From the NCBI GenBank assembly GCA_048213135.1, contig PS015038.1, positions 14,831-60,527 on the forward strand: a stretch of 45,697 nt of DNA, given 5' to 3'. Each line of letters opens with the position of its first letter. Positions within the stretch are counted from its first letter, which is position 1. Under the pieces are notes generated by a model. That model was given only the letters and a program-made list of their open reading frames with translations. It did not search any database and was not told the origin of the DNA. This stretch comes from Reclinomonas americana ATCC 50394 (taxonomy: Eukaryota). Of the stretch, positions 1 through 45,697 are shown piece after piece. A program made the translations under genes and the position numbers.

Positions 1-4960
<4,960 letters not shown>

Positions 4961-4974
4961 GATTGATTGCGGTT

Positions 4975-5400
4975 TCTCTCTCTGGCACTGAGTGTTGTCT
5001 TGCTTGTCTGTGGTTGAGAGAGTAATCTGGCTTGCCTTTTGTGTGAAAGATATCGCGTGGATCATTGACGTCGAATCTTCAGCTGATCGTGAACTTCACC
5101 ACAAGTCCCTTGTTGACAGTGACCTTAGCTGCAAACACACTAGTGCACTTCTCCAACAGTCATCTTCCCTTGCAGCGGGCAAAGCTAATTGCAATCACGA
5201 TCAAGCACGTCTTGGCCAGCCTGAAAAGGATTAATATTCGTGACTTGGTTTCCTCGTCTGTCTCTGGCACTGAGTATTGTCTTGCTTGTCTGTGGTTAAG
5301 AGAGCATCCGGCTTGCCTTTTATGTGAGAGAATGGCGTGGATCGTTGACGTCGCAGCTGAACTCACCACAAGTCCCTTGTTGACAGTGACCTTTGCACAC
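4975..5400. repeat. Imperfect direct repeat, two copies of ~150 bp
   Basis: tctctggcactgagt.ttgtcttgcttgtctgtggtt...caccacaagtcccttgttgacagtgacctt occurs at ~4979 and ~5261. Confidence 0.85.
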
Positions 5401-5818
5401 CAACACCCAGAACACACGGTTTGCTCTTCTCCACCAGTCACCTTCCCTTTCAGGAGGCAAAGCCATGTTGGTCCCATCAAGACATGCACAGTCAGGAAAC
5501 CTTGACCACCAGCACTCCCACCAACCTCGGTCTCTGATGAGATTAAGCAAGTCCAGGTTGTGCCAGACAGCGCGAAGGTGAGCGTGTACGCATTCTGCTC
5601 GCCTTACGCCCTGCGGCAACGCTTAGGGCAAGGAAGAGGAGAAGAAGGAGAAGGAAGAGAAGGAGAAACTCCTTCGACCCATCTATCAGCCCCTTGCACT
5701 GTTGCCGCTGTCGTGCATCGCAAATTCAGGATCACCAAGCTCACGAACCCTGTTTGCACAACGCACCTCAACCTTCGCAACCCCGCCCCGTCATCAGTTA
5801 TCTCTCTACCGCAGTCCA

Positions 5819-9665
<3,847 letters not shown>

Positions 9666-9739
9666 TCACAAAGAGAGAACAGAGAGAGTTTGTGTTGATT
9701 GATTGAGTGGGCAAGTCGACTTCATTGCAAGGGTTTCTC

Positions 9740-10190
9740 AAGAGAAGAGAGAGTGTTTAGGAAGATGAGGACTGTGCCTTCACTTCTTGTTGTGAGCTTC
9801 TCATGGCTCTCACAGAAGAGAGACTGTTGAGTGATAAGCTTGCATCGTCCTTCACTTGTCGTTGTTTGACACCACTTGTTGTGCCTCTCAGAGAAGAGAG
9901 GGTGTTTTGGAAGATGAGCATCGTGTCTCTACTTCTCGTTGTGTGCTTCCCATGTCTCTCAGAGAACTGCGACTCTTGACTGATGAGCTTGACTTGCAGC
10001 ACTTGTCATTGTTTGGCAGCACTTGTTGTGCCTCTCGGAGGAGAGACAGAGAGATTGTTGATTAAGTGAGCGAGGAAGCCATGAGCACCGTGTCTCTACT
10101 TCTCGTTGTGTGCTTCACACAGTTCTCAGAGGAGAGTGACATGACTGATAAGCTTGCAGCACACGTCCTTCACTTGTCGTTGCTGATACC
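9740..10190. repeat. Degenerate tandem repeat, about three units of 150-170 bp
   Basis: Recurring atgagca.cgtgtctctacttctcgttgtgtgcttc, tgataagcttgca and cacttgttgtgcctctc blocks. Confidence 0.8.
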
Positions 10191-10604: not shown

Positions 10605-11779
10605 TCAATGCCGCCGCATATTGAGCCCCGTCGGCGAGATAGCATTGAGCTTCACAATGAGTTCGGTTTCCGCCTCCTCCAGCGTCAGCGAGTACGGGTG
10701 GGGGTTGTTGTGGATGAAGATGATGCTGTGTGATAGGCAATGAGCAACAGCACGAGCATCTTGTTCAGCAGCAACATTTTCTGACGTATACGTACCCCGA
10801 CTCGCGCATCTTTGCGCCGCCGACCTTGGCCATGTAAGCATGCAGCAGGTACACCCTTTCCTTTTCGCCGCGAGCCGCGTCATGCGCGCAACGGCAATGT
10901 TGCCTGAAGCGAGCACGGCACTCTTGTTCAGTCTTGCCCACGTACACTTGGTGCTGGTGCTCGATCTCGACATCCGGCACTAAGAAGCAGTACATCACGC
11001 CGCTCGACGATGTCGTCGGCATCTCCCATTGAGTGATCTTGGCGTTGCAGCAAGCCTTGTGGCATAGCTGGATCTGCTCTCGAAACCGCGACGACAGCAT
11101 GAGCTCCTCGATGCGCTCCTTCGTCAGGCACTCCGGATCCGCCCGACCTCCAGGTTCACAGTCGGCGAGGGACCGCACATGAATCTCGGTGGGCGTCGGG
11201 CAGGCGTCGCTCGATTCCGACGCCTCCAAATTTCCGAACACCACCTTCTCAACGCACGTCAAGTGGCCGAGTTCCACGGGCACGACATGCTGTCCAGGCG
11301 TCTCCATGAGGAGCGCGTCGCGCCGCTCGATCTGCTGCAGCCGCAGCTGCCGGCGCTGTCGTAGCTGCAGTGGAGTCTCGTGTTGTGCCGGCAACTGTTG
11401 ATGCTCCTGGGGCTGCTCCGGTGCCGCCTGCCGACGAGCTCGGTCGCTGTGAGGCTCAGGACACGTTGGCTTCTTGTGTCCGTAATGGCCACAGTTACCA
11501 CACGCATTCTTGAGCCTACAATACAGCGTGACGTCGTCTCCGATGCTGGCATCATCGCAAAGCTCGTGACCCCGGTTGGAACTGAAAAGCCGGAGGCGCT
11601 CGATGGGGATCCGTTCTTTTCGTTTGGTGTACTCGAGCTCGTCGACGACCGCTCTTTTGATGGAGCAGATTGTCGTGTTGTCCTTCTTGTACTCCACACG
11701 CAGAATGACCTTCTCACCGCGCTTAACAACCACAGTGAACACCTGATGCAAAATAGGTGATCATGAGATCGAGCGAGAC

Positions 11780-11827
<48 letters not shown>

Positions 11828-12384
11828 GAGGGGAGGAGANNNNNNNNNNNNNNNNNNNNNNNNNNNNNNNNNNNNNNNNNNNNNNNNNNNNNNNNNNNNN
11901 NNNNNNNNNNNNNNNNNNNNNNNNNNNNNNNNNNNNNNNNNNNNNNNNNNNNNNNNNNNNNNNNNNNNNNNNNNNNNNNNNNNNNNNNNNNNNNNNNNNN
12001 NNNNNNNNNNNNNNNNNNNNNNNNNNNNNNNNNNNNNNNNNNNNNNNNNNNNNNNNNNNNNNNNNNNNNNNNNNNNNNNNNNNNNNNNNNNNNNNNNNNN
12101 NNNNNNNNNNNNNNNNNNNNNNNNNNNNNNNNNNNNNNNNNNNNNNNNNNNNNNNNNNNNNNNNNNNNNNNNNNNNNNNNNNNNNNNNNNNNNNNNNNNN
12201 NNNNNNNNNNNNNNNNNNNNNNNNNNNNNNNNNNNNNNNNNNNNNNNNNNNNNNNNNNNNNNNNNNNNNNNNNNNNNNNNNNNNNNNNNNNNNNNNNNNN
12301 NNNNNNNNNNNNNNNNNNNNNNNNNNNNNNNNNNNNNNNNNNNNNNNNNNNNNNNNNNNNNNNNNNNNNNNNNNNNNNNNNNNN

Positions 12385-12421
<37 letters not shown>

Positions 12422-12556
12422 CAGAGAGAGAGAGGAGGGGGGAAGGGAGAGAGAAGAGAGACGACCACAGCGCGCGTGATGAAGCAACAGACATGATCAT
12501 GACAAAGAACGAAATGACGGCAGCAAGAAAGTGGGTCGAGTGTGAGCGTGTGAGAA

Positions 12557-12598
<42 letters not shown>

Positions 12599-12664
12599 TG
12601 TGTGCAAGAGAGACAAGGAGGCGGCGGATGAGAATGGAGAAGGTGGAGACGATCTGCTCACCAT
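10605..12664 (-). CDS. Ubiquitin-like + CCHC zinc knuckle + GIY-YIG endonuclease fusion protein (~356 aa)
   Basis: Model: join(12664-12662, 11742-10796, 10725-10605). Ubl pattern VFTVVVK...TTICSIKRAV...IPIERLRLF...ELCDDASIG..VTLY. Knuckle CGNCGHYGHKKPTC. GIY-YIG motifs GVMYCF, VYVGKT, RFRQH, EEAETELI and SPTGLN. The ATG-only first exon is tentative because its intron spans an N gap. Confidence 0.75.
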
Positions 12665-12926
12665 GATTCTATTTTTTGTGTGAGTGAGCTTGACAACATT
12701 TGTCACTTTTGCGGGCAATCTCTCTGCTCACTGCTCCTGAAGCATGCTTGCTGATCTCTCGGTGGAGGAGTGTGGTGTCGCAAGTGGGAGTGCAGTCTCG
12801 CTGCTCCTCGGCAGATATCATGATACCCGTAGAGGCGACGTCGGGCGTACGCGTCGACGTTCTGCGCATGCAGCAGATTTCTTGTCATGCTCGCATACAG
12901 AGCGAATGGCGCCTCTCTCTGCATGC

Positions 12927-21256: not shown

Positions 21257-24200
21257 ATGCATCATCTGACAACAAAACAAAGTTTCTCTTCTCGCCAACA
21301 CTGGCCCCCTTCTGAGAAAGCGCGCGAAGGAGAGACACGCACCTCTCCCCCTCTCCGCCGCTTCTCCCCACGCGGAGAGAGAGACATGGACGCGCCTCCT
21401 CCGCCACCGCCTCCCCGGCCACCTCCTCCTCCACCTCCGCCACCTCCACCTCCTCCCGCTGCCTCCTCTTCTTCTTCTCACCACCCTCCCCTCTTCATCT
21501 CGGATCTACCCTTCCACCCCGTCGGCGAGTCACTCTCCACCGCCGAGCACCGCGGCGGCGGTCTCTTTGACGAGGACGAATTTGACTGTGATCACACTCA
21601 CGAGGCGGAAGATCACGATCTGTTGTTCTTTGACGGCCCGCTGCAAGACATGTTGGGTCACCCGCGTGTGATCGATGCCTCGCCTCCGCTGTACATCTCG
21701 CCACCGTCGCCGAGAGTCAGCGGTTCGTGAATGCGGAAGTTCGGAGATCTTGACTCAATGTGAAACGAGACCCTTTGTTCTTTCCTCTTTTCTCCAGCCT
21801 GTTCCTTCTCCCCTCCCTCGTCCCCCTCCGCTGTGTTTCTCTTTCTGTTTTTCTGCTGTTGTCAGAGGCTTCTAGAACTCCTCCGTATTTTAATGATCAC
21901 GAATATGACGCTGTTTTTTCTTGCGGCCAGGTCCTCCGTCTGAGGAGCTCGTGGAGAACTTGCGACGAGCGGATCCATCCAGAGCCCTGGAACGAGTGCT
22001 GTACAGGGAGCACACGCTGCACGTCATCCCGGTTCGTTCGCTTATCTGTCGTGTTTGTCTGTTTTAGACACCGAGGCGAAGGGTGGCTTGGTGTTTGCTG
22101 GTGTTGTGATCGTCACTCGCTGCTTGTGCGGGATGATGCATGCTAGCATGCAGAGGATTCTACTGCTTGTGATTATTCGCACATCTCATCTGACAGCAGT
22201 CGGAGAAAGAGTCACGATCTCCGGCTCGGATATCCACTGCATGTTATTTGACAGAAAGAGGAGCAGCGCAGTGAGTCTCAATTCTTTCTGGTGCCTGTGC
22301 ACTCTCCTTCACTCTCCCATTGTCGCAGAAGTGCAGGGCACAAGATTCTCGCACTGCTGTTCGTCACGTCTTGTTTTTCACATCACCGCTTGTCACGTCT
22401 CTGTCAGACTCTGTTGCACAGACTCCTCAAGTTTCCTTTTACTCACTCTGATAATCAGTGATCGTGTTTCTCTCTGCACGCTGTCGTCAGCCTCAGTCGC
22501 AGAATAATACCACTCAATCGTCAGTGCTTCTGTTTTTCTCCCTCGCATGCCGTCGCAACTCTTCGTTTGCTTGCCAGTCGGAGTATACTCACTGCTGTTG
22601 TTCTTCGCGACACTTTCACTCAGCCTGATCGTCAGTTTCTCTGTCTATCAACATGCCGTCAGCATCCTAAGTTGCAAAACAATTCTCGTGTCTTCACTCA
22701 CTAGTCAGTGCTTCTGTCTCTCTCTCTCTCTCGATGCACGCCGCCATTGAATCAACCTCTGTTGCAGAAGATTGGCAACTCTTCCTTCCTTACCGTGCTT
22801 GTGTCTCACTCTCGTTCATCGCCACGCTTCCTGTCACTCACTCAGCCTGAAAGTCAGTGCCTTTGTTTCTTCGCACCCTTGTTGCGAAGATCGGCACAGG
22901 GGATACTCGCATCTGTCGCTTCTCACATTTCTGCACGCTGTTTTTCATCGGCCTCGACTGCAGAATAACACTCGCGACTCGCGCCTCCTTCAGCGCGGTT
23001 TCTCTGCACCGCACTTCAGAGATATTCAGTCGCATCCAATTACAGTTTACGCAGCCTTGGCCAACCCACTCTTCTTGCTCATCTCTCGTACTAATCACTG
23101 TTCCCTTGCGGCTCGCTCTGTGCTCGCCACCTCAGACAGTCTCAGTTGCAGATGCGCAGCACAGCCAGATTTCCACTGCTCCAGCAGCCACTGCCGTCTC
23201 TTGTTTCTACCTGTCTTCACTCTCACAGAAGAGAATCTCATTGCTAGTGCCTGTGCTCGTCTCTTCGTTTTGTTCCACACTAGCTGCTTCCTGCTGCGCA
23301 CCATATCTGACAGCACTGTCTCTGTCTTGCTCGACAACTTTTCTTGCATCCTCTTTTCAGTTCTCCGAGCTCATCTTTTTCCCTTGTCCCTCTTTAGTTC
23401 CCTTTCCCCTCCCTTTCCCTTCTCCCTCCCCTCACCCCTTCCCTTTTATTCCCCCCATCCCTTCCCCTTTTCAGATCGGCGACCACGTCCACATCGTCAC
23501 CGGCGCCCGCTGGCCCCTCCACCCCTTCTCCCTTAACGACGACCTCAACCTCCGCGTCTCCGACGTCCTCAGCATCGACTGCGTGCTCGACCGCCGGTAC
23601 CTGGCCCGCGGCATGCTCGGACGACAGTGCGTGCTCGAGATGCACTATCACGGCCTCGCCGACAATGGCGGCCTGATGAAGCCGGTGAACTTTCACTTGC
23701 TGCGCCGATCGGGCGAGCGGTGTCGAGTCTTGCGTGCCTCGGTGACACTCATCCGCGACCGCGAGAATCGCGCGTCGCACTTTGAGATGACGTGCACGCC
23801 CACCAACACTGGTCTCACGCTCCACAGTCGGCAAGCCAAGGTGATTTATGGAGCTAGCTTCTTTGGTCACACAATAACTTGTGTGTGGTACCCACTCTTC
23901 TCTTTCCGCAGAACGAATCGCAGCGACCCTCCTCACGACACCCGTCAGTCGACAAGTTGCACTTCTCGCTGGATGTGGAGATTGTCATGCCCGGCGGCCA
24001 GCCGTGCAACGTGCCGCTGGAGTGCGACCTGCCGCTGGTGTTGCGAAATCGCACCGCCCAAGTACCTCTTTTCGCCAGTCACATTACGTGGGCGGCGGTC
24101 GACCCGAGTGCCACGGCCATGCTGGCCGCATGCTCGGCTCACGATCCTGGCCTGTGCGTCATGGAGCGTGCCGGAACAGTCAGTTGCGGCAAACAGGGGG

Positions 24201-24913
24201 GAATGGTGCACTCGCTCGTCGTGCGCTTACAGCTGTGAGGTGTGCAGATTTTACGCCATCGAGCACCTACGTTCGCCTGGCGCCCGACAGCAAAGTCCAG
24301 CTGTCGTTCACCTTTCCCCCGGACTTCCTGCAGCTCGTCCCTGACGTGTGTGCCGTTGGCCTGGTGACCGCCTGGAGCAGTGTGAAAGCGCATACCATGG
24401 TCAGCAGTTGCTGCTGTGGTCTTTCCCTAAAATTTGCGGTCGCTCACCGTGGTGCAGGTGCCCGACGTCTTCCGCATCACGGCCGCCGGCGTCGACCACA
24501 GCACCAGGCCCTTTGATCAGATCTTTGTGGAGCTACACGGTGGGCGTGTACGCAGCAGGGCGTGCCTGCTGGTCGCCGTCATGCGATCCACGGGCGTCAT
24601 TGGTGTGTACGCGCAGCAGTGTGTGGTCGACGTGCGGCCGGAGCGTGCTGCACTTGCGGGTGAGAGTGTGTGGTGTGAAAAGGAGACTGCCAACAATACC
24701 TGCTCTCATTCTATTGTAGCCGATGTCGACGCCAAGCGCAGAGGAAGGAGAAAGTCCGCGGCGGCCGACAGCCAAGATGGCAGCGACGACGATGGTTGGC
24801 TGATTTCTTTGTTCTCTCTCTCTCTCTCTTTCGCTCTCCATCTCTCACTGTGCTCTTCCACAGCCGATGATCCGCGTCCGCGCAAACGAGGCGCACGGGA
24901 CGCCGATCAATGA
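21257..24913 (+). CDS. Hypothetical protein: poly-Pro/acidic N-terminus, beta-rich core, basic NLS-like C-terminus (possible Ig-fold transcription factor)
   Basis: Coding-like exons at ~21257-21722, 21931-22031, 23475-23840, 23912-24200, 24230-24345, 24458-24660, 24720-24793 and 24863-24913, with GT-AG borders. C-terminal KRRGRRK and RPRKR. Confidence 0.55.
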
Positions 24914-25155: not shown

Positions 25156-25608
25156 TTACTCTTCTCCAACAGTCATCTTTCCTTTCAGGACTCCAGTGTG
25201 CATTCGAATCTTCTCCACCAGCTCGGCATACTTCGTCAACTTGCGGTCGTACGCCTTCTGCAACGCCTCTTCGTCCTTCTGGTACGCCACGGTGAACTCC
25301 ACAATCAGCACCTTCATCACCTGTGCATCGGCACCTGGACCTGCACGAGTCACCACAATGTCTGGTTTCAACTGTGCCAACTGGTCTTCTCCTGCTGGCA
25401 ACAAGTTCTGCGGTACTTTCTCAGTGTAGAAGATTGCCTCGCTGTGCACTCTGAGTTCCTCGTGGAAGATCGTTGCCACTCTGTTGTGCCGACTCGTCAT
25501 ATTGTCTTTCTGTGCCTCACACCAGCACAAAAAATGTGCCACTGTCTCTGGCTGTCCCTTGTTGCACACTGTGCGACCACCCAACTGACTGTACCTCTGC
25601 TTCTCCAC
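25156..25608 (-). mobile_element. 5'-truncated non-LTR retrotransposon fragment (CCHC knuckle + restriction-like endonuclease, RLE clade)
   Basis: RTVC...ETVAHFLCWC, RHN, KPDIVV, LIVEFTV and RKLTKY are the hallmark C-terminal motifs of RLE-type (R2/R4/NeSL/CRE-like) LINE ORFs. It is intronless and no RT is seen upstream. Confidence 0.8.
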
Positions 25609-26072
25609 GGACGGAACATGACGCGCAGCTGTGCATTAGTGACTATCCCAATTGACATACTGAGAAACATCGGTGACTTGCAAGTAGAACTTCTTCGCTC
25701 TCTGATCTTTCCACTCTTACTCATACTCCCTTCTCCCTCCCTCTCCTTTTCTCTCTCTCACTCCCCCTTCCCCTCTTTTCCCTTTCCCTATAATCCTCTG
25801 AAGTACCTTCTCTATCCCAAGTGACATACTGAGAATCATCGGTGACTTGCAAGTAGAACTGATTTGCTCTCTCCCTCCCTCTCCCTTTCTCTCTCCTTCC
25901 CTCCCCTTCCCCTCTTTTCCCTTTCCCTCTCCCTCCCTCTCCCTTCCCCTCTCCCTCCCTCTCCCTCTTCTCCCTCCTTCCCTCCCCCTTCCCCTCTTTT
26001 CCCTTTCCCTCTTTATCCCTTTCCCTCTCTATCCCTTTCCCTATTATCCTCTATATTATCCCCTTTACTAAT

Positions 26073-29000
26073 TCAATCATCGTCATCATCACTCTCCCCC
26101 TCCGACCCCACATAATCATCCCCCTCATACGCGTCGGCCAGCGCCGACAGCGACTCGGTCAGCTCCTCAAACTCATCCTGCGTCATGCCCCCCAACTGAT
26201 GCGCGACAATCCCTCGCGGAGCCGCCGCGAAGCGATCACGAATCTTGCCGCCCAGATAGCCGTGCACACCGGGACCGCACGTCAGCGACGCCATTGAGGC
26301 CGAGCGCAGGACGTCTGCGAGAGAGGGGTGAGAGAATCACCAAAAAGAATGAGCGGGAGAGGAACACCAACCGTGCAGCTCGGGCGACGCTGGATCCGGA
26401 TCACGCATGTGCGTCAAATCACCCTCGGACGACACGTGCTCCTTGAACATGTGCGGATACGAGATCGGGTACGACAGCGGCGCGTCCACGAGGCTCCAGT
26501 CGATGCGGTGATAGCCAGAGAACTGACCATAGTAAATGTCCATCAACTCGTCCACCGAATCTGCGCATTCCCATGAGTGCCCGTTCTTCCCCTCCTCTCC
26601 CCCTCCTTCTACCCAATCACACTCACCACAACCCAAGAACCGGTACGGCAACAGACTGCGCTCGCGCTCGCCCGGCTGATACAGCGGGTACCGGCTGAGA
26701 CCGCGCGCGGCCATAAACTCGGAGAACGGCACGCGATCGTCGTCGGTGAGCTGCGCGTATGGCGACAGCAGCGGTGCGAGGGGCGAGCGACGACCGAACG
26801 TCGGACCCATGTGCACCATGCGGCTGGCCAGCGACTCGGCCTTGAGCGGCGCATGGCCACGCGACGAGTAAATCGGCAGCAGCGACTCGGGGCAATCGGC
26901 CGGATAGATGGGGAACGGCATGGCTAGCGACGGCGACGCCACTCGCAAACGCGGCTGCACCGCCAACGTGTGCGCCACGTTGCGCATCTGCGAGTCGGAC
27001 TTGCCGAATGCCGACGACACCGTGTCGACGAGGGCCGCACAAATCGCCGAGTGCGCGTAGTGTCCAGGCTCCACGCGCATGTTGGGGAACAGCGACGAAA
27101 CCGGCCACTCCTCGCACGACACGGGCGAGAGGATCGAGCTGTGCTCGTACAGCGACGCCAGGCCGATGCCACTCTGAATGTCATGCATCGCAATGTCGCG
27201 TCGCTGTGCGCCCTCCGGCAGCGGCGTGGTGAACGAGTTGGTGAAGATCGGCGTGATGCCGTACTCGTCGCGCAGCATCTCCAGGTAGCGCTCGGTGAAG
27301 CCGCCGAAGAAGCCGACCTTGTGGAGGGGGGAATAAGGGGAAGGGGGAAGAGGGAATAAGTAGAAGGGAGGGGAAGGCAGGGGAGAGTGAGAAACAGAGA
27401 GGAAAAACAGAAACGACAATGCCGAGAGAAGAGAGAGATCTGGGGGAGAGAGAACGATGGAGCATAGAGGGGATGACTCGGGCCTCTGCCCAGACAATCA
27501 CAGAGAATGCAGACTTCGGGAAACACTGGAGGGAGCGTCGACACATCGCGCAAAGGAAAGGACACTTATTCCTGTGCCAGAGACGGATGAAGATATCGCG
27601 TCAAAAGAGCAAGAGGGAAGATATTGAGAAAAAGATTGTGAGAGAAAACGATGACAAGGTCCTTGTCATCATGCATCCACTACTCTGCGACGTGTGCAAC
27701 TCTTGGCCGTGAGAGAAGCGAGGAGAACGAGAAATCGACGCAAAGAACAATACGCTCCCACTCTGCGACGTGTGCAACTCTTGGCCGCGAAAGAAGCGAG
27801 GAGAGCGAGCAATCGACGCAAAGAACGATACGCACTTTCATTCGCTGCACAAGTCAAGGGAGAAGACCGCCATGAAGACAGAGAAATGAATGACAGACAC
27901 TATCGACAATCGTTGAAGAGTGGAGCGCTGACAAGAGGATTGTGGAAGCAGGAGGAGACAACGAAGGGCTAATGTGAGAACGACGTCTTCACATTTTCCC
28001 TGCACAACGTGTCGAGAGGAAGGATGGAGAGAATGAGGGAGAGAGAGAGGAGAGCGAGGAGAAATGAAGCGCAATTCTACCATTCTCTTCGCAATTGAGG
28101 GAACACTGGGTCAAGGGTCAAAGCCTTGACCTTTACCTGAAAGACCAACAGAACCGAGAGGAGCAAGGGAAGACACATAGGCAGTCGCTACCATGCTCCC
28201 ATACTTACAGTCTTTCAAAGTACCACGAAGAAGAGAATCAAAGTCAAGCACATACGCCATTTCTTCTCACTCTTCTCATTTCCCCCTTTCCCATCCTCTT
28301 CCCTTCCCCTCCCTCTCCTCCCCCTTCACTCTTTCCCCTATTCTCCCTTCCCCTCCCACCCTTCCCTATTTCCCACGCACCTGATCCGCCAACACATTGA
28401 ACCCCTGCAACGAATCGCACTCCTCGACAAAGAAGCGCACCGGGTCGAGATACTCATCGAGCGCCGCCGCCGAACTCAGCAGCTCACGACCGACCGTGTG
28501 CACATCGCAATCGTCGGTCACCTGATACTGCCGCACCACCGAAATGGTGCGCGGGTGATAGGCGGCCTTCAAAAAGTCGCTCCACGTCTGCACCGAGCCG
28601 TCGCGATCGGAGAGCGAAAACCACTCGCGGCCAGTGTTGTCGGCGTACTTGCGTGCCGGCGCAGCTTCGGCCGGTGCTGCCGCCGATGATGACGAGCCCT
28701 CGCCGCCACTGCCACTTCCTGCAGCAGCAGCAGCACTGATCTTGAGCTCCACCGCACTGCCACCGTCATCGTTGAGCGCCTTCAAAAAGTCATTCATCGT
28801 GCGGCTCTTGGCACGCGCGGCCGACGCCGACGCTGCCGCACGTACTCTTCGCCGCACACGAACGCCCAGTCGCACGCTGTCGTCGTCATCGTCGTCGTCG
28901 TCGTCTTCGCGCTCATCATCCGGCACCTCGTCGACCTCAATGTCCACGAGCTCGCCGTCGTCGTCGAATGCGCCTTCGACGGGAAGTACGCCGCCGGGCC

Positions 29001-30287
29001 TGGAAATGACATGGGATGAGGAGGGTGAGGAGAGAGAGAGAGAGAAAGAGTAAAGGGGGAGAAGAAGAAGAAGAAAGAAGAAAGAAGGGGGAGGGTGGAG
29101 AGGAAAAGAGGAGACAGTGTGTGTGTGTGAGAGCGAAGAGGAGACCAGAAAAAACAGGAGACGGAGACAGCGATAGAGGATATGGAGACACCGAGAGTGA
29201 CGAGAGAGAGAAAGAGACAGAGTGAGTGAGAGAGAAGTGGACACGGAGAGTCAAGAGTGATGAGAAGAGGGTGACTGCAGCAAAGACGAGAGAAGTGAAC
29301 AGTGGCAAAGACAGACAAGGGCAACGACGAGGGAGAAGACAGAGAGACAGAGTGAAGAGTTAAAAGAAAAGCTGAGAGTGCGATGAGGAGAGAGTGAAGG
29401 GAGATGACGACGCATAACAGAGAGATAAGGAGGAGAGCACAGAGAAGGAGACGAGCAGAGAGAGAGAGAGAAGGAAGGGAGACAGTGAAGAGAGTGAAAG
29501 CAGAAGAGTGTGAAAAACAAGAGAGACGAGGAGAGACAACGGCATTGACAACAGAGACACGAGAGAGAGCAGAGAAACGGGAAAAAAGAGTCAAAAGAGT
29601 GAACGGAGCACTAGACGAGGGGAGAAAGTTAAGAAGTGAACGGTGACGAGGAGAGACAAAGGACAAGAGCACAGAGTGACACAGGGAGCAGAGAAACGGA
29701 AAAACAGCCAAGAGAGCGAAAGGAGCAAGAAGAGACGAGAAAGTAGAGAAGAGATGAGACGAGGAGAGAACAGGATGCACAACAGAGAGGGATAGAAGGA
29801 CAAGAGCACAGACAGGCGGCGAGAGAGCAACACCCACAGAGAGAGACAACTTACCAAGCACCTCCGACGCGATCTCGCACCGCCATTGGCTCCTCCGGTC
29901 GCGCATACACATATCCATCACGCGCAAGGAATCCCAGACTACCCCGCAAGTCGCACAGAACAGCTCGCGGCAAGTACGTCGAGTCACCCTTGACAAGAGA
30001 GACACAGAGAGAATGAGCTCATCTTTGAGCACTTTCGAGTGAGTGAGTGAGCGAGCGCTGCACCTGTCGCGTCTCGCCTACACGATAAAAGGTGTCAAAG
30101 TTGACTGCAGAGTCGGGTGTGGCGCCACCTGCATACGCAATGGCCTCCTCCTGTGTGTGTCACAGAGCAGTGAGTCCAACAATAACTTTTTCTTTGTTTT
30201 TTTGTGTGTCGCAACTCGCATGTTCCACAGATGCGAGGCTGTGTAGTTGGCGAATCGGCCCAAGTGTACTGTGACAACCTCGCGCAT
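26073..30287 (-). CDS. MSTO1: Misato/DML1 tubulin-FtsZ-like protein
   Basis: MREVVTVHLGRFANYTASHLWN; YLPRAVLCDLRGSLG; VQTWSDFL..YHPRT; VRFFVEECDSLQGFN..D|VGFFGGF...LRDEY; C-terminal DEFEELTESLSALADAY. Six exons in frame. Confidence 0.92.
27680..27835. repeat. Intronic direct repeat, 2 x ~78 bp
   Basis: actctgcgacgtgtgcaactcttggccg...aatcgacgcaaagaac occurs at ~27682 and ~27760. Confidence 0.9.
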
Positions 30288-31728: not shown

Positions 31729-33784
31729 TCATTGTTTTGTGGTGCGACGAGCGAGGGCTGCGTGGATGAATCTGTGCGGGTCGTCGTGGTCGTTGTCGTG
31801 TATGTGTGCGTGTGTGAGTGTTTGCAATGAACGTGGTGAGTGTCGACAGTGGAGGGGAGAAGGCGCAACTCGTCGAGATCGCCGTCGAGTACGTTTTGCA
31901 CGTCGGTCCGTTGCACGCCGGTGCGCAGGTCCTTGACCAGCTGGGTGTGCATGAGAGAGAGTGAGAGAGAGAGAGAGAAAAACGGCACCCTTCATCTGAC
32001 TCTGCACTCTTGCCCTTCTCGCCGCACTTTTCACTCTTGATATCTCGCCGTGACTGACATAGTCATTCTCCCTTGTTAACTCTGCCCTGCGCCCTTCATT
32101 CTTGATATCTCTGCTCTTTAGTCCTATACCCTTGTAATATGGCTTTCTTGCGCCTCACCCGTTGCCCTCCACCCTTCTCCTCTTATCACCCTTTGCCCTC
32201 TCATCGCCCTCACCCTGTCCCTCTTTGCCCTACACCCTTCCCCTCGTATCACCCTTTGCCTTCTCATCGCCCTCACCCTGTCCCTCCTTGCCCTCCACCC
32301 TTCCCCTCTAATCACCCTTTGCCCTCTCATCGCCCTCACCCTGTCCCTCCTTGCCCTCCACCCTGTCCCTCTTTCACCCTTCCCCCTCTTCCCCCTTCCC
32401 TCTTTGTCGCACCTGGTACGGGGCCATCACATACGACCGAATCTGCGATCCCCACGCATTCTCGCCGAGACTCGCCGCAAATGCCTCCTTTTCCGCCGCT
32501 CTGCCGAGAAGGGGTGAGTGCAACCACCAGCTGAGGGAGAAGCACTGATGCTCATCGCACCGCTTCTGCTGCTCACGCAAAAAGAGCTTGGCACGCAGCA
32601 ACTCGAGTGCGCGCGCCTTATTCGAGTGCTGCGAGCGCTCGGACTGGCACTCTGTGCAGAAGAGTGAGCATCACCCTCTCCTTCACAAGACCTTTTTCAT
32701 AACAGCCACGCACCAGCAACGAGTCCAGTCGGCAAGTGCACGATGCGCACCGCACTCTCGGTGGTGTTCACATGCTGGCCACCGGCGCCGCTGGAGCGAA
32801 ACGTCTCCACGCGCAGATCCTTGACCGGCAACTCGCCCACACCGCTGCCCTCTTCGGCACCACCATCGACAATCGGCAGCACCACCACCGACGCAAACGA
32901 CGTGTGCCGCCGCCCCAGCGCATCAAACGGCGAGATGCGCACCAGGCGGTGCACGCCGACCTCCGGCGCCAAATGCCCATACGCAAACGGCGCCGGCACA
33001 CGCAGGCTCCACGATCGCTCCCCGCTCGACATGACCTCGCCTGCCACGAGTGAGCCACGAGGAGGCGCAGCAGGCTCCGAGCACGAAAAAAAACGCAACA
33101 AGGAAACGCCTGCGCAGTCGCCCACCGACTGTACATGCGTGCCAACATCGCCGCCCAATCGCCGCTCTCCGTGCCACCCGCGCCCGCATGAATCTCCACG
33201 TAGGCGCCAGCCGACACGTTCGGATTATCGCCACACATCACCACCTCCGTATGCAACCGGACCGCCTCCCGCACAACGCGCCGCCACGCGACCACACACT
33301 CCCGCGCAACCTCCTCGTCTCCCGCCTCCCTCGCCATCTCCGACAACTCCACCAGCTGGCGACACTCGGTCGACAAGCGATCCGCCGACTCGACACACTG
33401 CTTCAGCTGCCCGTACTCGCGAAGCAGCGCCTGTGCACGATCGCGTCGCGTTCCACCGGCACCAAACAGGTTCTGAACAGCGCGGGTAAGCGATCAGATG
33501 CACGCATGAGAACGCCTATAGTGTGCCTCGCATACCTCTGTCTGCTCCTGCAACGCACGCAGGCGATCGGCCGCACCTGTGACCTGCAATCGCTGCTGCA
33601 CAGCGTCGAGCAGCTGCTGCGTGCGTCGCGACTCCTCCATCACTGCGGACACACTCATAGTCAGCACTGTGCGTGTAAAGGCCTTTGTTGCGTACACACA
33701 CACACAGACACAACTGGCGACCAGCGCGGCAAGTGGCGACGCTGCTGCAGTGGAACAACATCGCAAGACAACTCTCCTCAGCAT
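31729..33784 (-). CDS. Mitochondrial peptide chain release factor 2 (PrfB-like, mtRF2)
   Basis: Presequence-like [43 protein letters not shown] (SPF tripeptide = RF2); [42 protein letters not shown]. Seven exons. Confidence 0.93.
32150..32370. repeat. Tandem 60-bp minisatellite (~3.5 copies) in an mtRF2 intron
   Basis: cctcaccctgtccctc.ttgccct.cacccttcccctc..atcaccctttgcc.tctcatcg is repeated. Confidence 0.9.
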
Positions 33785-36464: not shown

Positions 36465-37843
36465 ATGGCAGACGCTCCCAAGAAGCGCAGCGGCCTGGCG
36501 GTCGGCCTGAACCGCGGCCACGTGACTCACCGCCTGTCGGTGCCCCCCAAGATCTCTCGCCGAAAGGGAGTTTCGTGCACAGACTTACAGAGACTCATAC
36601 GCAGAGACTGTTGGGAGAGACGTGCGAGAGAGAGGAGTGGCGCCTTTCTTGAGTGTGCTTGTGTGCGCGTGTGTGTCGCTGCGCGTGATGTGCGGGTGTG
36701 AGGCGAGAGTGTTGTGTGTCTGCCATGTGCATGCATCATGGCGCGCACACTCCCTCCCTCCCCCTTGTCTTTGCGCCCTGCCGTCGCCACCAGCTGTATG
36801 CATATGTGGAGGCACAGGGAAGAGAGTGGAGAGTGGGAGATAGGGAGAGAAGAAAAGTTTTGCATTCTTCTTCAGTCGCTTGATTCATATCGTTCTCCTG
36901 TGTGGTTGGTTCTCTTGCCCCTTATCTACCTACTCCACTGTGATGCCACTGAGAATCCTCGATGGATTCACTCAGATCACGGCATTGCATCCTTGATACA
37001 TTCTCATCGCTGTCTCCCTCCTGCTTTCCCACTCCTTCCATGGTCGCCCTCATCTCCTTCTCCCTGCTCTTTCCCCTCATCTCCTTCTCTCTTAGCTCGC
37101 CTCACTGCCCCCTTACCTTCATTGCTGCTTCATCTTCCGTCTTGCATCCTGTCTCATTCCTCCTCCCCATCCCGCTTCTCATTACCCGTTCCCGTTGCTC
37201 CTTCCCTCACCTTCCAGCTCAGTCCTCGCCTTCCCTGCCGTTCGCTTCTCTTCCCTTCTCGCTTCTCCCGTCATCCTTCTCCACTGTCCCTTGCGCCGCA
37301 ATCATCTTCCACTCCATCCTTCGCGTCCTCCCTCATGCCCCCTTCAAATGCACGCCTTTCTCTCCTTGTCCACTTTGCTCTTCTCCACTTTTCTTTCTCC
37401 TCCGTCTCTCTATTCTCCTTCTCCTTCCCCCTTCCCTCTTCCCTCTTGCCCTTCCCTCTTTCCCCTCCTCTCTCCTCCCTTCCTCCCCTTCCCTCCTTCT
37501 CCCATCTCACTCCCCCTTCCCTTTCTTCCCCCCACAGGCCAACACCAAGCAGAACAAGCTGATCCGATCAGTGATCCGCGAGGTGGCCGGCATGGCGCCG
37601 TTCGAGAAGCGCGTGCTTGAAATGCTCAAGAACGACTTTGAGAAGAAGGCACTCAAGTTCGCCAAGAAGCGCGTTGCGTAATCCACTCGCACACCACTGC
37701 AGAATGACGAGAGTTGATGATCGACGGGAGAATGCTGATTTTTGTTTGTTTCATATCGTGCGTAGCTGGGCACGCACACTCGCGGCAAGAAGAAGCGCCA
37801 AGAGCTGTCGGACCTGGTCCGCGCCATGCGCAAGAAGCACTAA
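36465..37843 (+). CDS. RPL36: 60S ribosomal protein L36 (eL36)
   Basis: Model: join(36465-36569, 37538-37672, 37766-37843) = MADAPKKRSGLAVGLNRGH...IREVAGMAPFEKR...KFAKKRLGTHTRGKKKRQEL. Confidence 0.97.
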
Positions 37844-38323: not shown

Positions 38324-39710
<1,387 letters not shown>

Positions 39711-39800: not shown

Positions 39801-41201
39801 TCATCTCCTCCAGTGTTTCACTGGGAGGCTCGATTCGTGCAGTGCTGCGTATTCTCCACAGAAGGCTGATGCTCTGGTCACGTCAAGCTGGATGGTTATT
39901 CCTGCGAGCTCCTTCATCTTCCAGTACGTACGCAGAAAGCAGCGCAGCTTCTTCTATGACTGACGCCTCAGAGCCGTACCTTTGCTCCCGATACGATGCG
40001 CCTCATAATTATCTTCAGTTCCTCCCCTTCTCTCATCTCCTTCCCCTGCTCTCCCACTCTCTTTCAGGCAGTGCCGTTTATTCTCGTCAGCTCCTCCTAC
40101 CCTTCTCCCATTTCCGTTTCTCGCGCAGCGTGCATGCGCAACGCACACAACCGACAGTGCTCCCACACAAAACACCGCAACACCATCTCCGGCAGACTCT
40201 CCTCCCCGGCCTCCACACGCACCTCGTGCAGCGCCTGCAACGCCCCGTCAATCACCTCCATCTCGCGATGGATGCACGCCACACCATCCACCGTGTGCTC
40301 ACTGACGTCCCACACGTACATCACACCATCGCTGTCGGCTGCCGCCACTCGGCCCGCATCAATGAACACTACGCCAGTCAATCGCGAGGCCGGTACCTCG
40401 GCCGTGCACAACAGTTGCTGCGACGAGTTCCACAGTTGCAAGTGGCCATCTGCAGGCTTGGTGAGGCGACATACGGGCAATAGTAGAAGAAACAGGAGAC
40501 GCACCAGCCGTGCACGCTGCGACGACTTGTCCACCACGGCCACGGCCCACCGCCAAAGCCGTGTACTCCATCGCGCCTCCACTGCGCCACTGTTCCACCG
40601 CACCCTCGCCCGTGACCACCACCGACCTAAAGTACCCACCACGATCCGCATACACCACGCGCTCCTCCCCCTCCTCGCCCAACAACCCAATCGCCACAGG
40701 CGACACCGCAACCGCCAACAACCTCACCGCCGTCCACGTACGCGTGCTCCACAGCTCCACCGTCCCACCCTTAGTCAACACCACAAAGCACTCCTCCGGA
40801 ACCTCCACCAGTTGCACCACTGACGCTCCTGTCCACGCAACTCGTCGCCACGCTGCACCAGTGGTCGCACGCAACACCAACAACTGCTTCGGCGAGGCCG
40901 CCACCACCAGCGACGCACGCGACACCACACAGACAGCTGCGCATGCTCCACTGATACTAGCAGACCACATGCACATTCCATTGCTCCACATGCGCACGGC
41001 TGCACGATCGCCAGTGATGACATAGTCGTCGGTGAGAAAGGCGAGGGCGGTGATGCATGTGGCGTCGTCAGTGTGCACAGTGTGCGCGTCGTCCCAGTCG
41101 TGCACGAGAAGGTGACCGGAGGTGCAGGCGAGGGCGAGGCGACGTCGACCGGCGCAGAGGCAGGTGATGGGTGAGGGGGCGGTGAGTGCACGTCGCGGCA
41201 T
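39801..41201 (-). CDS. WD40 beta-propeller protein
   Basis: Repeats ITCLC, GHLLVHDW, ITALAF, AVRMWS, GTVELWS, GHLQLWN, GVMYVWDV. The last exon and stop are tentative. Confidence 0.7.
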
Positions 41202-41803
41202 GAGTGAGAGAGAACGTCGACTGTGTCCCCTGTCATTTGTTGTGTTGTTGACAGTGATGGCGAGCTCGTCGCAGCAGCAGAGTCGAGCCAAGCGATGTCT
41301 TGGTGANNNNNNNNNNNNNNNNNNNNNNNNNNNNNNNNNNNNNNNNNNNNNNNNNNNNNNNNNNNNNNNNNNNNNNNNNNNNNNNNNNNNNNNNNNNNNN
41401 NNNNNNNNNNNNNNNNNNNNNNNNNNNNNNNNNNNNNNNNNNNNNNNNNNNNNNNNNNNNNNNNNNNNNNNNNNNNNNNNNNNNNNNNNNNNNNNNNNNN
41501 NNNNNNNNNNNNNNNNNNNNNNNNNNNNNNNNNNNNNNNNNNNNNNNNNNNNNNNNNNNNNNNNNNNNNNNNNNNNNNNNNNNNNNNNNNNNNNNNNNNN
41601 NNNNNNNNNNNNNNNNNNNNNNNNNNNNNNNNNNNNNNNNNNNNNNNNNNNNNNNNNNNNNNNNNNNNNNNNNNNNNNNNNNNNNNNNNNNNNNNNNNNN
41701 NNNNNNNNNNNNNNNNNNNNNNNNNNNNNNNNNNNNNNNNNNNNNNNNNNNNNNNNNNNNNNNNNNNNNNNNNNNNNNNNNNNNNNNNNNNNNNCGTGTA
41801 TGT

Positions 41804-41848
<45 letters not shown>

Positions 41849-41893
41849 ATGATCCTGTGATGATTGAATGCATTGTGTTGGGTTTTTCTTTAG

Positions 41894-43120
41894 GAATTCC
41901 TGGAGTTCCCAAGTCGGCGGTTGGCCTGGCTGTGTGGCACACGTTGTGGCCGTATGCTGACGATCCGGAGCAGTCGACATCGATGCCGTCGTCGTCGGCG
42001 GCGGCGTCGGCGGCGAGTGCGAGTGGTGAGTGCGGAGGAGGAGACACGGAGAAGAAGAGGCAACAACATAACAACGACAACAACAAGAGAAGAAGAAAAA
42101 CGATGAGCAAGAGAAGAAGATGTGAAGCAACGAGCGAGAGAATGTGGATACAAGTAGGCGACGAAAAAGGATGAGGAGGAGGTGGAGTAGGAGACGAGGA
42201 ACAGGAGCGTGAGAGAATGTGACTCCAGTAAGGAGTTGAAGCCTTTCGTTCTTCCTCTCCTTCTCACCTCCCCCATTGTGTATGTCCTTGTTATTCTCCT
42301 ACGTGCGTTCCTTTACTTTTCTGTCTCTCTCTCTCTCTCATCCCTTCCCCTCACCTCCCCCTCTCATCCCTTCCCCTCGCCTTCCCTCTCATCCCTTCTC
42401 CTTCCCAGTGGATCGATCACGCTGGCGAGTGCGCTTCCACGACGTACCGACGGTGATCCAGTCGCGCTTCTCGTACGTCCGCGAGCAGATGCCGAGAGCG
42501 CCACATGTTCGTCTGAAGGTGTTCTCGTGCGGCGACCGCGATTCGCTGGCCTCGTTGGAGGAGTCGGTATGTGTACGCGCGTGCTCTTTCCGCAACTTCA
42601 ATCTGTTTCTCACCTCTCTCTCCCTCTCTCTCGCAGCTTGTCGACGACCTCGCGAATGCATCTCCGGTGCGGCTCGTGTTTGTGTGCTCATTTGCGCGAC
42701 CGGTTCACTCACCCCGTGACGCGCAGAAAGGAAACGAGGTTGCCGACTCGATTCCGGTGGTGATTGTGGGCACGATGAAGCACACGCGATTCGGCATCAT
42801 GGAGGAGGACCTGGAGCTCTTCTGTGCACGATGGAACTGTGAGATCCACACGATTGAGAACTTCCCGAAGCAGGGAGGCGATGTGGCCGAGGTGGAGACG
42901 TCCGACATGGCCAACGATATTAGGGTTGCGTGCCTCGTTGTCATTGCACTGCTGCTGCGGCATCTCATCAACCGCGCACTCTCAGGACATGACCAAACTC
43001 ATGAACGCGATTGTGGACGCTGGCGCCACACGGTGGGCAGCCGAGGCCGCGCGTACGCACACCAAGTTCGACCCGCGAAGACAGCCATCTCCCAAGCGGA
43101 AGAAGGGCAAGCCAAAGTAG
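41894..43120 (+). CDS. CPLANE2/RSG1-like atypical small GTPase (5' part lost in the N gap)
   Basis: AVGLAVWHTLWP, WRVRFHD...SRFSYV, VFSCGDRDSLASL, PVVIVGT, EEDLELFCARWNCEIH and DMTKLMNAIVD parallel my recollection of RSG1 (GIQTTVVFWP, FEFWD..KKFDH, FSFTDRASF, ERDL.AF..AW, DVAHILN). Confidence 0.65.
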
Positions 43121-43990: not shown

Positions 43991-45697
43991 TCACTCGCGC
44001 ACCCGCGAGCCATCTCCTCCTGCACGGCACAGAAAACCAAGTGAGTGATTCGCAGCAAAAAAAGCCACATCAACAATGTACAAAGACACACGCACCCCTT
44101 CGGTACTTCTGCTTGGGGCTGTCGGCGCCGTCGTCGATCTCGCCCTCGTCACTCGGCTCACGCTCACGCTCCCGAGAGTGTTTCTGGAGAATGCGTGCGT
44201 GCGAATTCAGTGAATCTCGAGGTGAATAGCACCCGTGATCGCACACACTCACCCGCCCGGCACGGCCCTCGCTTTCCACTTCCATCTTCCGGGAGTCGGG
44301 CGAGCGCTCGCGACTGCGCTTCCGCTGCACAAAACGAAGGAAATTATTGTCAGTGTGAGCAGGCAGATAAAAGTCAGCACCGCACTGCACTCACCCTTGA
44401 CGGCGAACGCGATGACGTGCGCGAATCACGACGCCGGGAGCTGGAAAGCGAGGGCGACACCGAGCGGTCACGAGTCTCTGCGCCATTCTCTGCCTGTGCC
44501 CCGCTCTCACGTCTGCTCCGCAGCCGTTCCACGTACTCAGCAAATACCTTGGCCGCCACGGACTCTTCTAGGTGACGGTACGACGAGTGCCCTTCGAGCG
44601 AGGCCTTCAGTTCATCCTGCACGAGCCACCAATCAGCACGCAGCACACACGTGATATCGTAGATGCGCACAGCCTTCACGCAACATTCCATTCGTCTGTC
44701 TCGCGAATGTGCTTGCGCTTGAGGAGATCACGGAAACGANNNNNNNNNNNNNNNNNNNNNNNNNNNNNNNNNNNNNNNNNNNNNNNNNNNNNNNNNNNNN
44801 NNNNNNNNNNNNNNNNNNNNNNNNNNNNNNNNNNNNNNNNNNNNNNNNNNNNNNNNNNNNNNNNNNNNNNNNNNNNNNNNNNNNNNNNNNNNNNNNNNNN
44901 NNNNNNNNNNNNNNNNNNNNNNNNNNNNNNNNNNNNNNNNNNNNNNNNNNNNNNNNNNNNNNNNNNNNNNNNNNNNNNNNNNNNNNNNNNNNNNNNNNNN
45001 NNNNNNNNNNNNNNNNNNNNNNNNNNNNNNNNNNNNNNNNNNNNNNNNNNNNNNNNNNNNNNNNNNNNNNNNNNNTCCATGTCCTCCTGCATGCGCTTCT
45101 CCTGCTCCTTGGCCTTGTCGGCAAGGCGCTTCACCATCTGCTCAGCAGCAAAAATAAGGTGACTGACAATGGAGAGTGTCGACGCCAACCCCCGCTCTCG
45201 ACTATTCACAGACCTTGCGATGAATCCACGGGAGGTGAGCACGTGTGAGCTTGGGTGCATCTTCCGCAGCGAAAAAGGAAACAAAAGTGTCAAAGTCTGT
45301 ATCAACGGCAAACTCAATCTTCTTGTCCTGCAGTCGCACAGGTGTGAGTGAGTATGCAGCACATGAACGACAGGGAAAGAGAGCTGACAAACCTCCAGGT
45401 ACCGCTTGATGACCTTGGCTTCGTCGCGGGCGACCTTTTCGAGCTCATCCATAAAATCGCTGAACAGGTGGTGAGCAGATATCCTGCACGTGGTGGTGGA
45501 GTGAGATGAGATGAGTGAGCGGGATGCGCCTCGAAGAGTATGCACACGTGCACACGCAACTCTCGCTGCTCCTCCATGGCCTTGGTGGCCGGATGATCGG
45601 CAATGGTGGGCTCGAAATCGCGCCAGCGCGTGCTGAGAACGAGCTCGCCCGCCTCTTGCTTCTGCGTCAGGAGTTGCTGTGCAGCGAATCAACCGTG
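43991..45697 (-). CDS. PRP40: Pre-mRNA-processing factor 40 (PRP40/PRPF40), C-terminal FF-domain part; extends beyond the window
   Basis: GELVLSTRWRDFEPTI..HP...M, LFSDFMDELEK, FAVDTDFDTF, RFRDLLK....DEWN|DELK..LE...Y.....KVFAEYV (FF repeats), then an RS-rich tail and SDEGEI. Confidence 0.8.

Follow-up and report, generated by a model that had tools for sequence, protein, structure and literature searches.

A probable lineage-restricted gene for a GIY-YIG nuclease with an apparently undescribed domain combination in nuclear DNA of Reclinomonas americana

Here, we propose that a minus-strand locus in Reclinomonas americana ATCC 50394 is probably a genuine nuclear gene, restricted to its lineage and made up of three or more exons, and predicted to encode a GIY-YIG nuclease of about 356 residues with a new architecture. 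The locus occupies positions 10605 to 12664 of a stretch of 45,697 nucleotides (the window: GenBank assembly GCA_048213135.1, contig PS015038.1, positions 14,831 to 60,527 of the forward strand), and all coordinates given here are those of the window (Table 1). The protein would begin with a small alpha/beta head that may be ubiquitin-like, followed by a CCHC zinc knuckle of the retroviral type, some 150 residues of linker, and a C-terminal GIY-YIG nuclease. That a GIY-YIG domain is present is, on the sequence evidence, very likely, and the domain is probably complete across intron 2.

By their codon usage, which is like that of the neighbouring housekeeping genes, exons 2 and 3 are coding. 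On a codon log-odds measure trained on four reference open reading frames (ORFs) of the window, all four having Pfam family matches, these reference ORFs score 0.11-0.42 bits/codon; in frame, exon 2 reaches 0.278 bits/codon (-0.13 and -0.37 in the two other frames) and exon 3 reaches 0.369, with values of about 0 for the 3' flank and for the region below the proposed ATG. The G+C content at codon positions 1, 2 and 3 (0.64, 0.42 and 0.73) resembles that of the reference ORFs. Exon 2 lies within a minus-strand ORF (11760-10765) of 331 codons, stop to stop, which is non-repetitive and in which the first ATG does not occur before about residue 150. These observations bear on the suggestion that there is no functional gene here, and that motifs like those of GIY-YIG domains and knuckles fall by chance in a frame that is open by accident or is decaying. 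Such a frame would agree with the lack of a known homologue, the sub-threshold level of all domain matches, and a start codon that is not established, with an assembly gap just upstream. We nonetheless regard it as highly improbable, given a 331-codon non-repetitive frame whose in-frame codon bias equals that of known genes, the recovery of each of three predicted families as the only Pfam matches, the independent scoring of each half of the nuclease, and an expectation of about 0.03 knuckle patterns by chance in the window (our own estimate, taking Cys and His at about 2.5%).

The gene model follows from splice signals and reading frame. Position 11742 is a good start for exon 2 because a pyrimidine tract and an AG precede it. 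Of 34 open GT-AG combinations, that of intron 2 (GT at 10795, AG at 10726) comes closest to the splice consensus, and its coordinates agree with the 10796/10725 splice of the first-pass annotation of this DNA. That annotation had also held that the final two motifs of the nuclease appear only after splicing, and removal of intron 2 does join the frame to an exon bearing a beta strand, a Glu-rich helix (E332-E337), N351, and the TGLN ending. For the first exon, the ATG at 12664 may serve as the start, and is attractive because exon 2 begins exactly at the start of the first strand of the N-terminal domain. In the putative intron 1 the assembly is interrupted by 545 N (11840-12384), a gap within which an extra exon may be hidden, and there are GA/CT microsatellites.

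The evidence for the nuclease begins with the N-terminal half of the domain, where VYVGKT and RARFRQH fall within residues 266-282. Our Pfam scans covered 24,736 families at E <= 10, with E-values that already allow for the number of families. In these, the 76-residue nuclease part of exon 2 matches PF01541 GIY-YIG (E 0.011, 16.4 bits against a cut-off of 22.6, profile positions 11-36 of 78) and, as a second match, PF20815 GIY_YIG_2 (E 0.23, cut-off 22.4). In phage T4, three of the eight GIY-YIG matches to the same PF01541 model lie below the cut-off (21.4, 20.3, and 16.5 bits). Among PDB sequences, the lone match of the 73-residue N-terminal half at E <= 10 is the SLX1 homologue 7wme_A (E 0.27), in an alignment of 51 residues that has one one-residue gap and spans the hairpin, the YxG, and the Arg..Gln-His helix. 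Profile comparison by hhalign gave P 3.3e-4 over the YVG..R..H stretch. When this half was scored against shuffles on subfamily profiles, the signal was strongest for the URI type (z 5.4, reached by 0 of 1000 shuffles), followed by UvrC (z 4.2, 1 of 1000) and the I-TevI type (z 3.7, 4 of 1000), with z 0.6 for Seg.

Y267 and G269 fall on the YIG columns in every alignment made, and R278 and H282 align with the Arg and His columns in each of our two profiles, with the hhalign and the SLX1 phmmer alignments agreeing on RARFRQH. The first tyrosine, that of "GIY", would be Y251 only if the hairpin were 5 residues longer than that of I-TevI, and the SLX1 alignment puts F253 in its place. As judged from these alignments, the placing is secure for Y267, G269, R278, and H282, but not for the first tyrosine (Y251 or F253) or for which Glu is the conserved one. 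Where the full set of Tyr, Tyr, Arg, His, Glu, and Asn had been read as retained, the YIG tyrosine, the arginine, and the histidine stand, but the first tyrosine is ambiguous and the register of the Glu and Asn depends on the profile.

Across the whole domain, we used our own GIY-YIG profiles (from 8 T4 domains, 62 I-TevI-like proteins, 120 Seg-like proteins, and 37 bacterial URI and UvrC domains) and a purpose-written whole-domain (glocal) Viterbi scorer, hmmalign having given no whole-domain alignment. The spliced domain scores 9.41 bits in this mode, a value reached by none of 4000 shuffles (maximum 4.67; p 0.002 by a Gumbel fit), compared with a maximum of -4.6 among 670 ORFs of the window and -5.5 for the unspliced ORF. 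When 2671 sequences (the spliced protein itself, the 670 window ORFs, and 2000 shuffles) were scored in local mode on a non-redundant profile of 28 sequences, the spliced protein came first, by a match of 10.1 bits that covers the YVG..R..H stretch only. On a core profile of the I-TevI type the whole domain scores -0.81, above the maximum of 1000 shuffles (-1.28; z 3.4) and of the window ORFs (-10.3). Fifteen Pfam-detected GIY-YIG domains of other subfamilies gave z 1.6-10 on this same profile, 14 of the 15 at 3.4 or above. Since the z of 3.4 lies within the range of known domains from other subfamilies, the predicted domain behaves like a distant true member.

The exon 3 half has its own signal. 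On a profile of I-TevI-type C-terminal halves it is matched by 2 of 3000 shuffles and by none of 5000 window 39-mers, and with another alignment of this type it has z 2.9 (7 of 1000 shuffles). In the alignment to the I-TevI type, the Glu and Asn columns fall on E333/E335 and N351. The C-half profiles of the other kinds (broad, URI, UvrC, and Seg) gave no signal for this half. The view that the protein ends like the GIY-YIG domains of homing endonucleases therefore survives in part: exon 3 modestly fits the I-TevI-type halves, but not the Seg, URI, or UvrC types.

Several results weigh against the reading of a complete GIY-YIG domain in a real gene. Support for the C-terminal half is modest, and we count it on this side. 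The broad profile sets the Glu and Tyr-Asn columns on E314 and Y327-S328, and random C-terminal peptides placed on the true N-terminal half reach the observed whole-domain score in 136 of 3000 cases. On a local I-TevI profile the spliced protein has 4.4 bits, inside the shuffles, and on a 190-sequence phage profile in local mode it has 0 bits; Smith-Waterman comparison with 10 GIY-YIG exemplars gave noise (z -0.98 to 1.63). An unrelated ORF of the window reached 11.7 bits on the local I-TevI profile, and local matches of about 10 bits do arise by chance. When exon 2 was modelled by AlphaFold from the single sequence, the predicted local distance difference test (pLDDT) score was 36.7. The gene model is affected too. 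Alternative GT-AG pairs score similarly to the 10795/10726 splice on GIY-YIG profiles (it ranks 3rd of the 34 combinations by broad profile score, and 3 of the 15 GT-AG combinations listed outscore it on the I-TevI-type profile), so that intron 2 was chosen for its splice signals and its frame. The candidate start at 12664 is one option among many, being 1 of 61 phase-compatible ATG..GT combinations within 1.66 kb upstream, and rival first exons with donors as good are present at 12731.

To the same side belong the family and homologue searches. No domain reaches its curated Pfam cut-off, and the whole exon-2 protein returns zf-CCHC_4 alone from Pfam (E 0.028). Neither a GIY-YIG nor a homing-endonuclease family was matched in PHROGs, and an NCBIfam scan returned nothing. 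A homologue search yielded 1048 word-sharing candidates with none at E <= 0.01, none of 1,835,955,588 representative proteins matched at E <= 0.001, and an Atlas search with the whole protein gave no usable match. The lack of relatives may come in part from how thinly these collections cover eukaryotic genomes. Two PHROGs matches were set aside as uninformative: phrog_1473 (head morphogenesis; E 1.5) and, for the last exon, phrog_12832 (function unknown; E 0.029).

The unrelated ORF with the 11.7-bit local match is a minus-strand ORF of 93 codons at about 23950-24226, antisense to a larger ORF, and was matched on a Y.G..R..RH-like stretch. Whole-domain scores of -19.5 and -32 rule it out as a GIY-YIG domain, and it serves well as a decoy against which to weigh local matches.

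The zinc knuckle has the exact CX2CX4HX4C spacing, and both the glycine after the second cysteine and the Gly-His pattern are present. The pattern occurs three times in the 64,149 residues of the six-frame ORFs of the window, the other two being in a neighbouring gene. As a 36-residue piece, the knuckle matches zf-CCHC_4 (E 0.0013, 18.7 bits, cut-off 27) and zf-CCHC_6 (E 0.028, cut-off 22); PF00098 is reported for the neighbouring gene and not for this knuckle. By its spacing and its glycines the sequence is that of a zf-CCHC knuckle, with profile matches that are sub-threshold. It lies within 3 residues of the N-terminal domain, directly after it as first read, and the linker that follows, first described as Gln-rich, is indeed rich in Gln and Arg. 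None of three pieces of the linker matches a Pfam family at E <= 10, and a low-confidence AlphaFold model places helices at residues 124-147 and 208-230.

That neighbouring gene is the next one downstream (5841-9665, minus strand, thus in the same orientation), a multi-exon gene with several CCHC knuckles. Pfam detects zf-CCHC there at E 3.1e-5 (8038-8472), exact CX2CX4HX4C patterns occur at 8038-8472 and 7300-8037, and some tracts are of low complexity, acidic or basic; in this it recalls proteins of the Air1/ZCCHC7 type. The adjacency of two knuckle genes may be a coincidence. Between them lies a tandem array (9739-10158) of about three copies with a period of about 150-165 nucleotides and 74-89% identity.

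The ubiquitin-like reading of the N-terminal domain is the weakest part of the architecture, depending as it does on a 13-bit Pfam match and a low-confidence model. PF18036 Ubiquitin_4 is the sole Pfam match of the first 80 residues (E 0.11, 13 bits, cut-off 22.8), over profile positions 2-41 of 89, and the AlphaFold model of the N-terminal 99 residues, with a pLDDT of 48.2 (low confidence), has the order b-b-a-b-b-b. It is possible, if somewhat less likely than not, that the gene with its knuckle and its GIY-YIG domain is real and that its N-terminal 78 residues resemble a ubiquitin-like domain by chance. A match so short and of so few bits would suit this, as would the search of the PDB, which is rich in ubiquitin-like chains, yet returned no such chain and, as the only match, the unrelated ribosomal protein L14 (E 0.67). 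When the model was compared with the PDB by Foldseek, there was no match at E <= 0.001 (best E 2.3), and ubiquitin chains appeared at ranks 7, 31, 37, and 46 only, with template modelling (TM) scores of 0.18-0.28; an Atlas feature search with residues 1-100 gave no usable match. Against a chance resemblance, Ubiquitin_4 is the sole family of the 24,736 to be matched by this segment, is of the kind predicted beforehand, and the strand and helix order of the model is that of the beta-grasp. The first-pass call of a ubiquitin-like domain has a sub-threshold Pfam match of the predicted kind behind it, for a fold that stays putative. The comparison with DWNN that had been suggested was negative, with no DWNN family at E <= 10 in any segment scanned against Pfam. 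Read directly in the translation, the domain ends without Gly-Gly, and so, if ubiquitin-like, it would be a built-in domain rather than a conjugatable tag.

Taken segment by segment, the only Pfam matches throughout are of the kinds predicted beforehand, and the proposed order of ubiquitin-like domain, knuckle, and GIY-YIG domain is borne out to that extent, but all of the matches are sub-threshold. In our literature search, judged by titles and the beginnings of abstracts, the combination of a ubiquitin-like domain, a knuckle, and a GIY-YIG domain was not found described. Within that reading of the literature, a ubiquitin-like head joined to a knuckle and a GIY-YIG tail is probably a domain combination that has not been described.

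Might the gene instead belong to a mobile element, or derive recently from one, with no role for the host? It could then be a homing-type GIY-YIG gene that stands by itself, a piece of a Penelope-like element, or a transposon, not yet described, whose knuckle is Gag-like. The last exon resembles the I-TevI-type homing endonucleases only, CCHC knuckles are typical of Gag proteins, and the lack of an orthologue in annotated proteomes would suit a fast-evolving selfish gene. We consider such an origin unlikely, since Pfam scans of the protein gave no reverse transcriptase, integrase, transposase, or NUMOD-type module, and the gene has spliceosomal introns and host-like codons. The surroundings argue likewise: around the gene there are no terminal inverted or long direct repeats and no mobile-element landmarks, with microsatellites only. 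Among 2.9 million viral contigs there was no pattern match and hence no relative, and the N-terminal half of the domain suits the cellular URI/SLX1 and UvrC types above the I-TevI type and has no fit to Seg. In metagenome contigs, 100 stretches matched a pattern and none was confirmed. The domesticated viral or homing nuclease that the first-pass annotation had inferred is thus a hypothesis for which these searches brought no donor to light.

In light of the predicted protein being a lineage-restricted GIY-YIG nuclease, which known system does it resemble? By analogy, it would work most like a small cellular GIY-YIG nuclease. SLX1, a structure-specific endonuclease subunit whose GIY-YIG domain is of the URI type, has an N-terminal nuclease followed by a RING/PHD-type finger, and works with SLX4. 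It is the only solved structure matching the N-terminal half of the domain in sequence, and the URI-type score is the strongest for that half; however, the nuclease here is C-terminal, the Pfam scans gave no RING or PHD match, and the C-terminal half has no URI-type fit. Membership in the SLX1 family was rejected on domain order and the absence of a RING/PHD match. With the I-TevI type, the protein shares a whole-domain alignment in which the Arg, the His, the Glu-rich helix, and the final Asn are in register, and a last exon that fits this subfamily only. It differs in having no NUMOD or helix-turn-helix tail, and in its setting, which is nuclear, with spliceosomal introns in the gene itself, rather than within an intron or the genome of a phage. 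A strict homing endonuclease was accordingly rejected (no DNA-binding tail and no mobile context), as was a Penelope-like element, there being no reverse transcriptase family in Pfam scans of the 315-residue exon-2 protein or its pieces.

The RBBP6/Mpe1 proteins also have an N-terminal ubiquitin-like domain (here putative) followed by one CCHC knuckle, with a longer spacer between head and knuckle in contrast to the 3 residues here. The protein differs from them in lacking any DWNN or RING family at E <= 10 and in having a nuclease as its effector, rather than being an E3 ligase; without DWNN and RING, membership in this family was rejected. Nuclear fusions of GIY-YIG domains with protein- or DNA-binding modules offer a further likeness. 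In ANKLE1/LEM-3, the GIY-YIG domain has ankyrin and LEM partner domains. In plant EFFECTOR OF TRANSCRIPTION (ET) factors, a GIY-YIG domain is reported to be combined with zinc- and DNA-binding repeats (PMC6585611). Compared with ANKLE1/LEM-3 and the ET factors, the partner domains here are others, and homologue searches detected no sequence relationship.

The window is eukaryotic nuclear DNA and the neighbours of the gene are ordinary nuclear genes, with the housekeeping neighbours (Table 1) split by introns. Its G+C content is about 50-60%, GA/CT and CA microsatellites are plentiful, and runs of N interrupt it in several places. In composition and in its split genes it brings to mind the coccidian apicomplexans. 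Such runs also occur in ORFs spanning 3128-5061, 5506-6815, 40359-42298, and 44572-45695, and the assembly gaps adjoin GA/CT microsatellites. A 159-codon ORF on the minus strand (25156-25635) has no Pfam match at E <= 0.01 and contains a KPDIVV...IVEFTV pattern, which we take to recall the restriction-like (PD-D/ExK) endonuclease modules of some retroelements.

Table 1. Features of the predicted nuclease gene and of its neighbours, in coordinates of the window
Feature	Coordinates	Strand	Remarks
Candidate start ATG	12662-12664	-	GTGAGC donor abuts the ATG; read from sequence only
Putative intron 1	11743-12661	-	Pyrimidine tract and AG acceptor at 11744-11743
Exon 2	10796-11742	-	947 nucleotides; 315 whole codons plus 2 nucleotides; protein P0002
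N-terminal domain, residues 1-78	11509-11742	-	Possibly ubiquitin-like (beta-grasp)
CCHC zinc knuckle, residues 81-94	11461-11502	-	Exact CX2CX4HX4C
Linker, residues 95-246	11005-11460	-	Gln/Arg-rich predicted helix, then a further region
GIY-YIG N-terminal half, residues 247-316	10796-11004	-	Beta hairpin, YVG, Arg/His helix (Y267, G269, R278, H282)
Intron 2	10726-10795	-	70 nucleotides; GTACGT..CACAG; phase 2; splits Gly316
Exon 3	10605-10725	-	121 nucleotides, 39 codons; TGA stop at 10607-10605
Tubulin_3/misato-type pieces	26337-27497 and 28366-29250		Pfam
PCRF release-factor domain	32768-33493		Pfam E 4.7e-20
Ribosomal protein L36e	36953-37681		Pfam E 2e-16
Spermidine synthase	38770-39630		Pfam E 1.3e-21

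How might such a protein act? In the GIY-YIG mechanism, which uses one metal, a tyrosine activates water, the Arg and His stabilise the transition state, and the Glu holds the metal. By comparison with UvrC, I-TevI, and Eco29kI, the active site, with its single metal, would consist of Y267, R278, H282, a glutamate of the last helix (E333 or E335), and N351, and the protein would nick or cut DNA. Binding to single-stranded nucleic acid would come from the knuckle, the Gln/Arg helix of the linker may mediate self-association, and the N-terminal domain might bring the enzyme to a partner or have a regulatory function; such a role, like the delivery or regulation first proposed for the head, is purely conjectural. 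In Mpe1/RBBP6, the pair of ubiquitin-like head and knuckle positions a separate nuclease on RNA. A bolder analogy would make the present protein a targeting nuclease in one chain, with a ubiquitin-like head, a CCHC knuckle, and a complete GIY-YIG domain, cutting single-stranded or structured nucleic acid under ubiquitin/proteasome control and private to its lineage; given the introns, it would also be a rare case of an I-TevI-like GIY-YIG domain captured by a nuclear genome. We regard this fuller scheme as speculative and quite improbable.

GIY-YIG nucleases serve in DNA repair (UvrC, SLX1), in the resolution of chromatin bridges (ANKLE1), and in the spread of mobile elements. The present case carries a caution for the search for further ones, as whole-protein scans were nearly blank and domain-wise scans recovered the domains weakly. 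If the gene that we favour is expressed, R. americana would have a lineage-private nuclease with built-in modules for nucleic-acid binding and protein docking, and the protein would be an example of an ancient catalytic domain persisting in what is, to sequence searches, an orphan. In that case it might serve, too, as a marker or target specific to the species.

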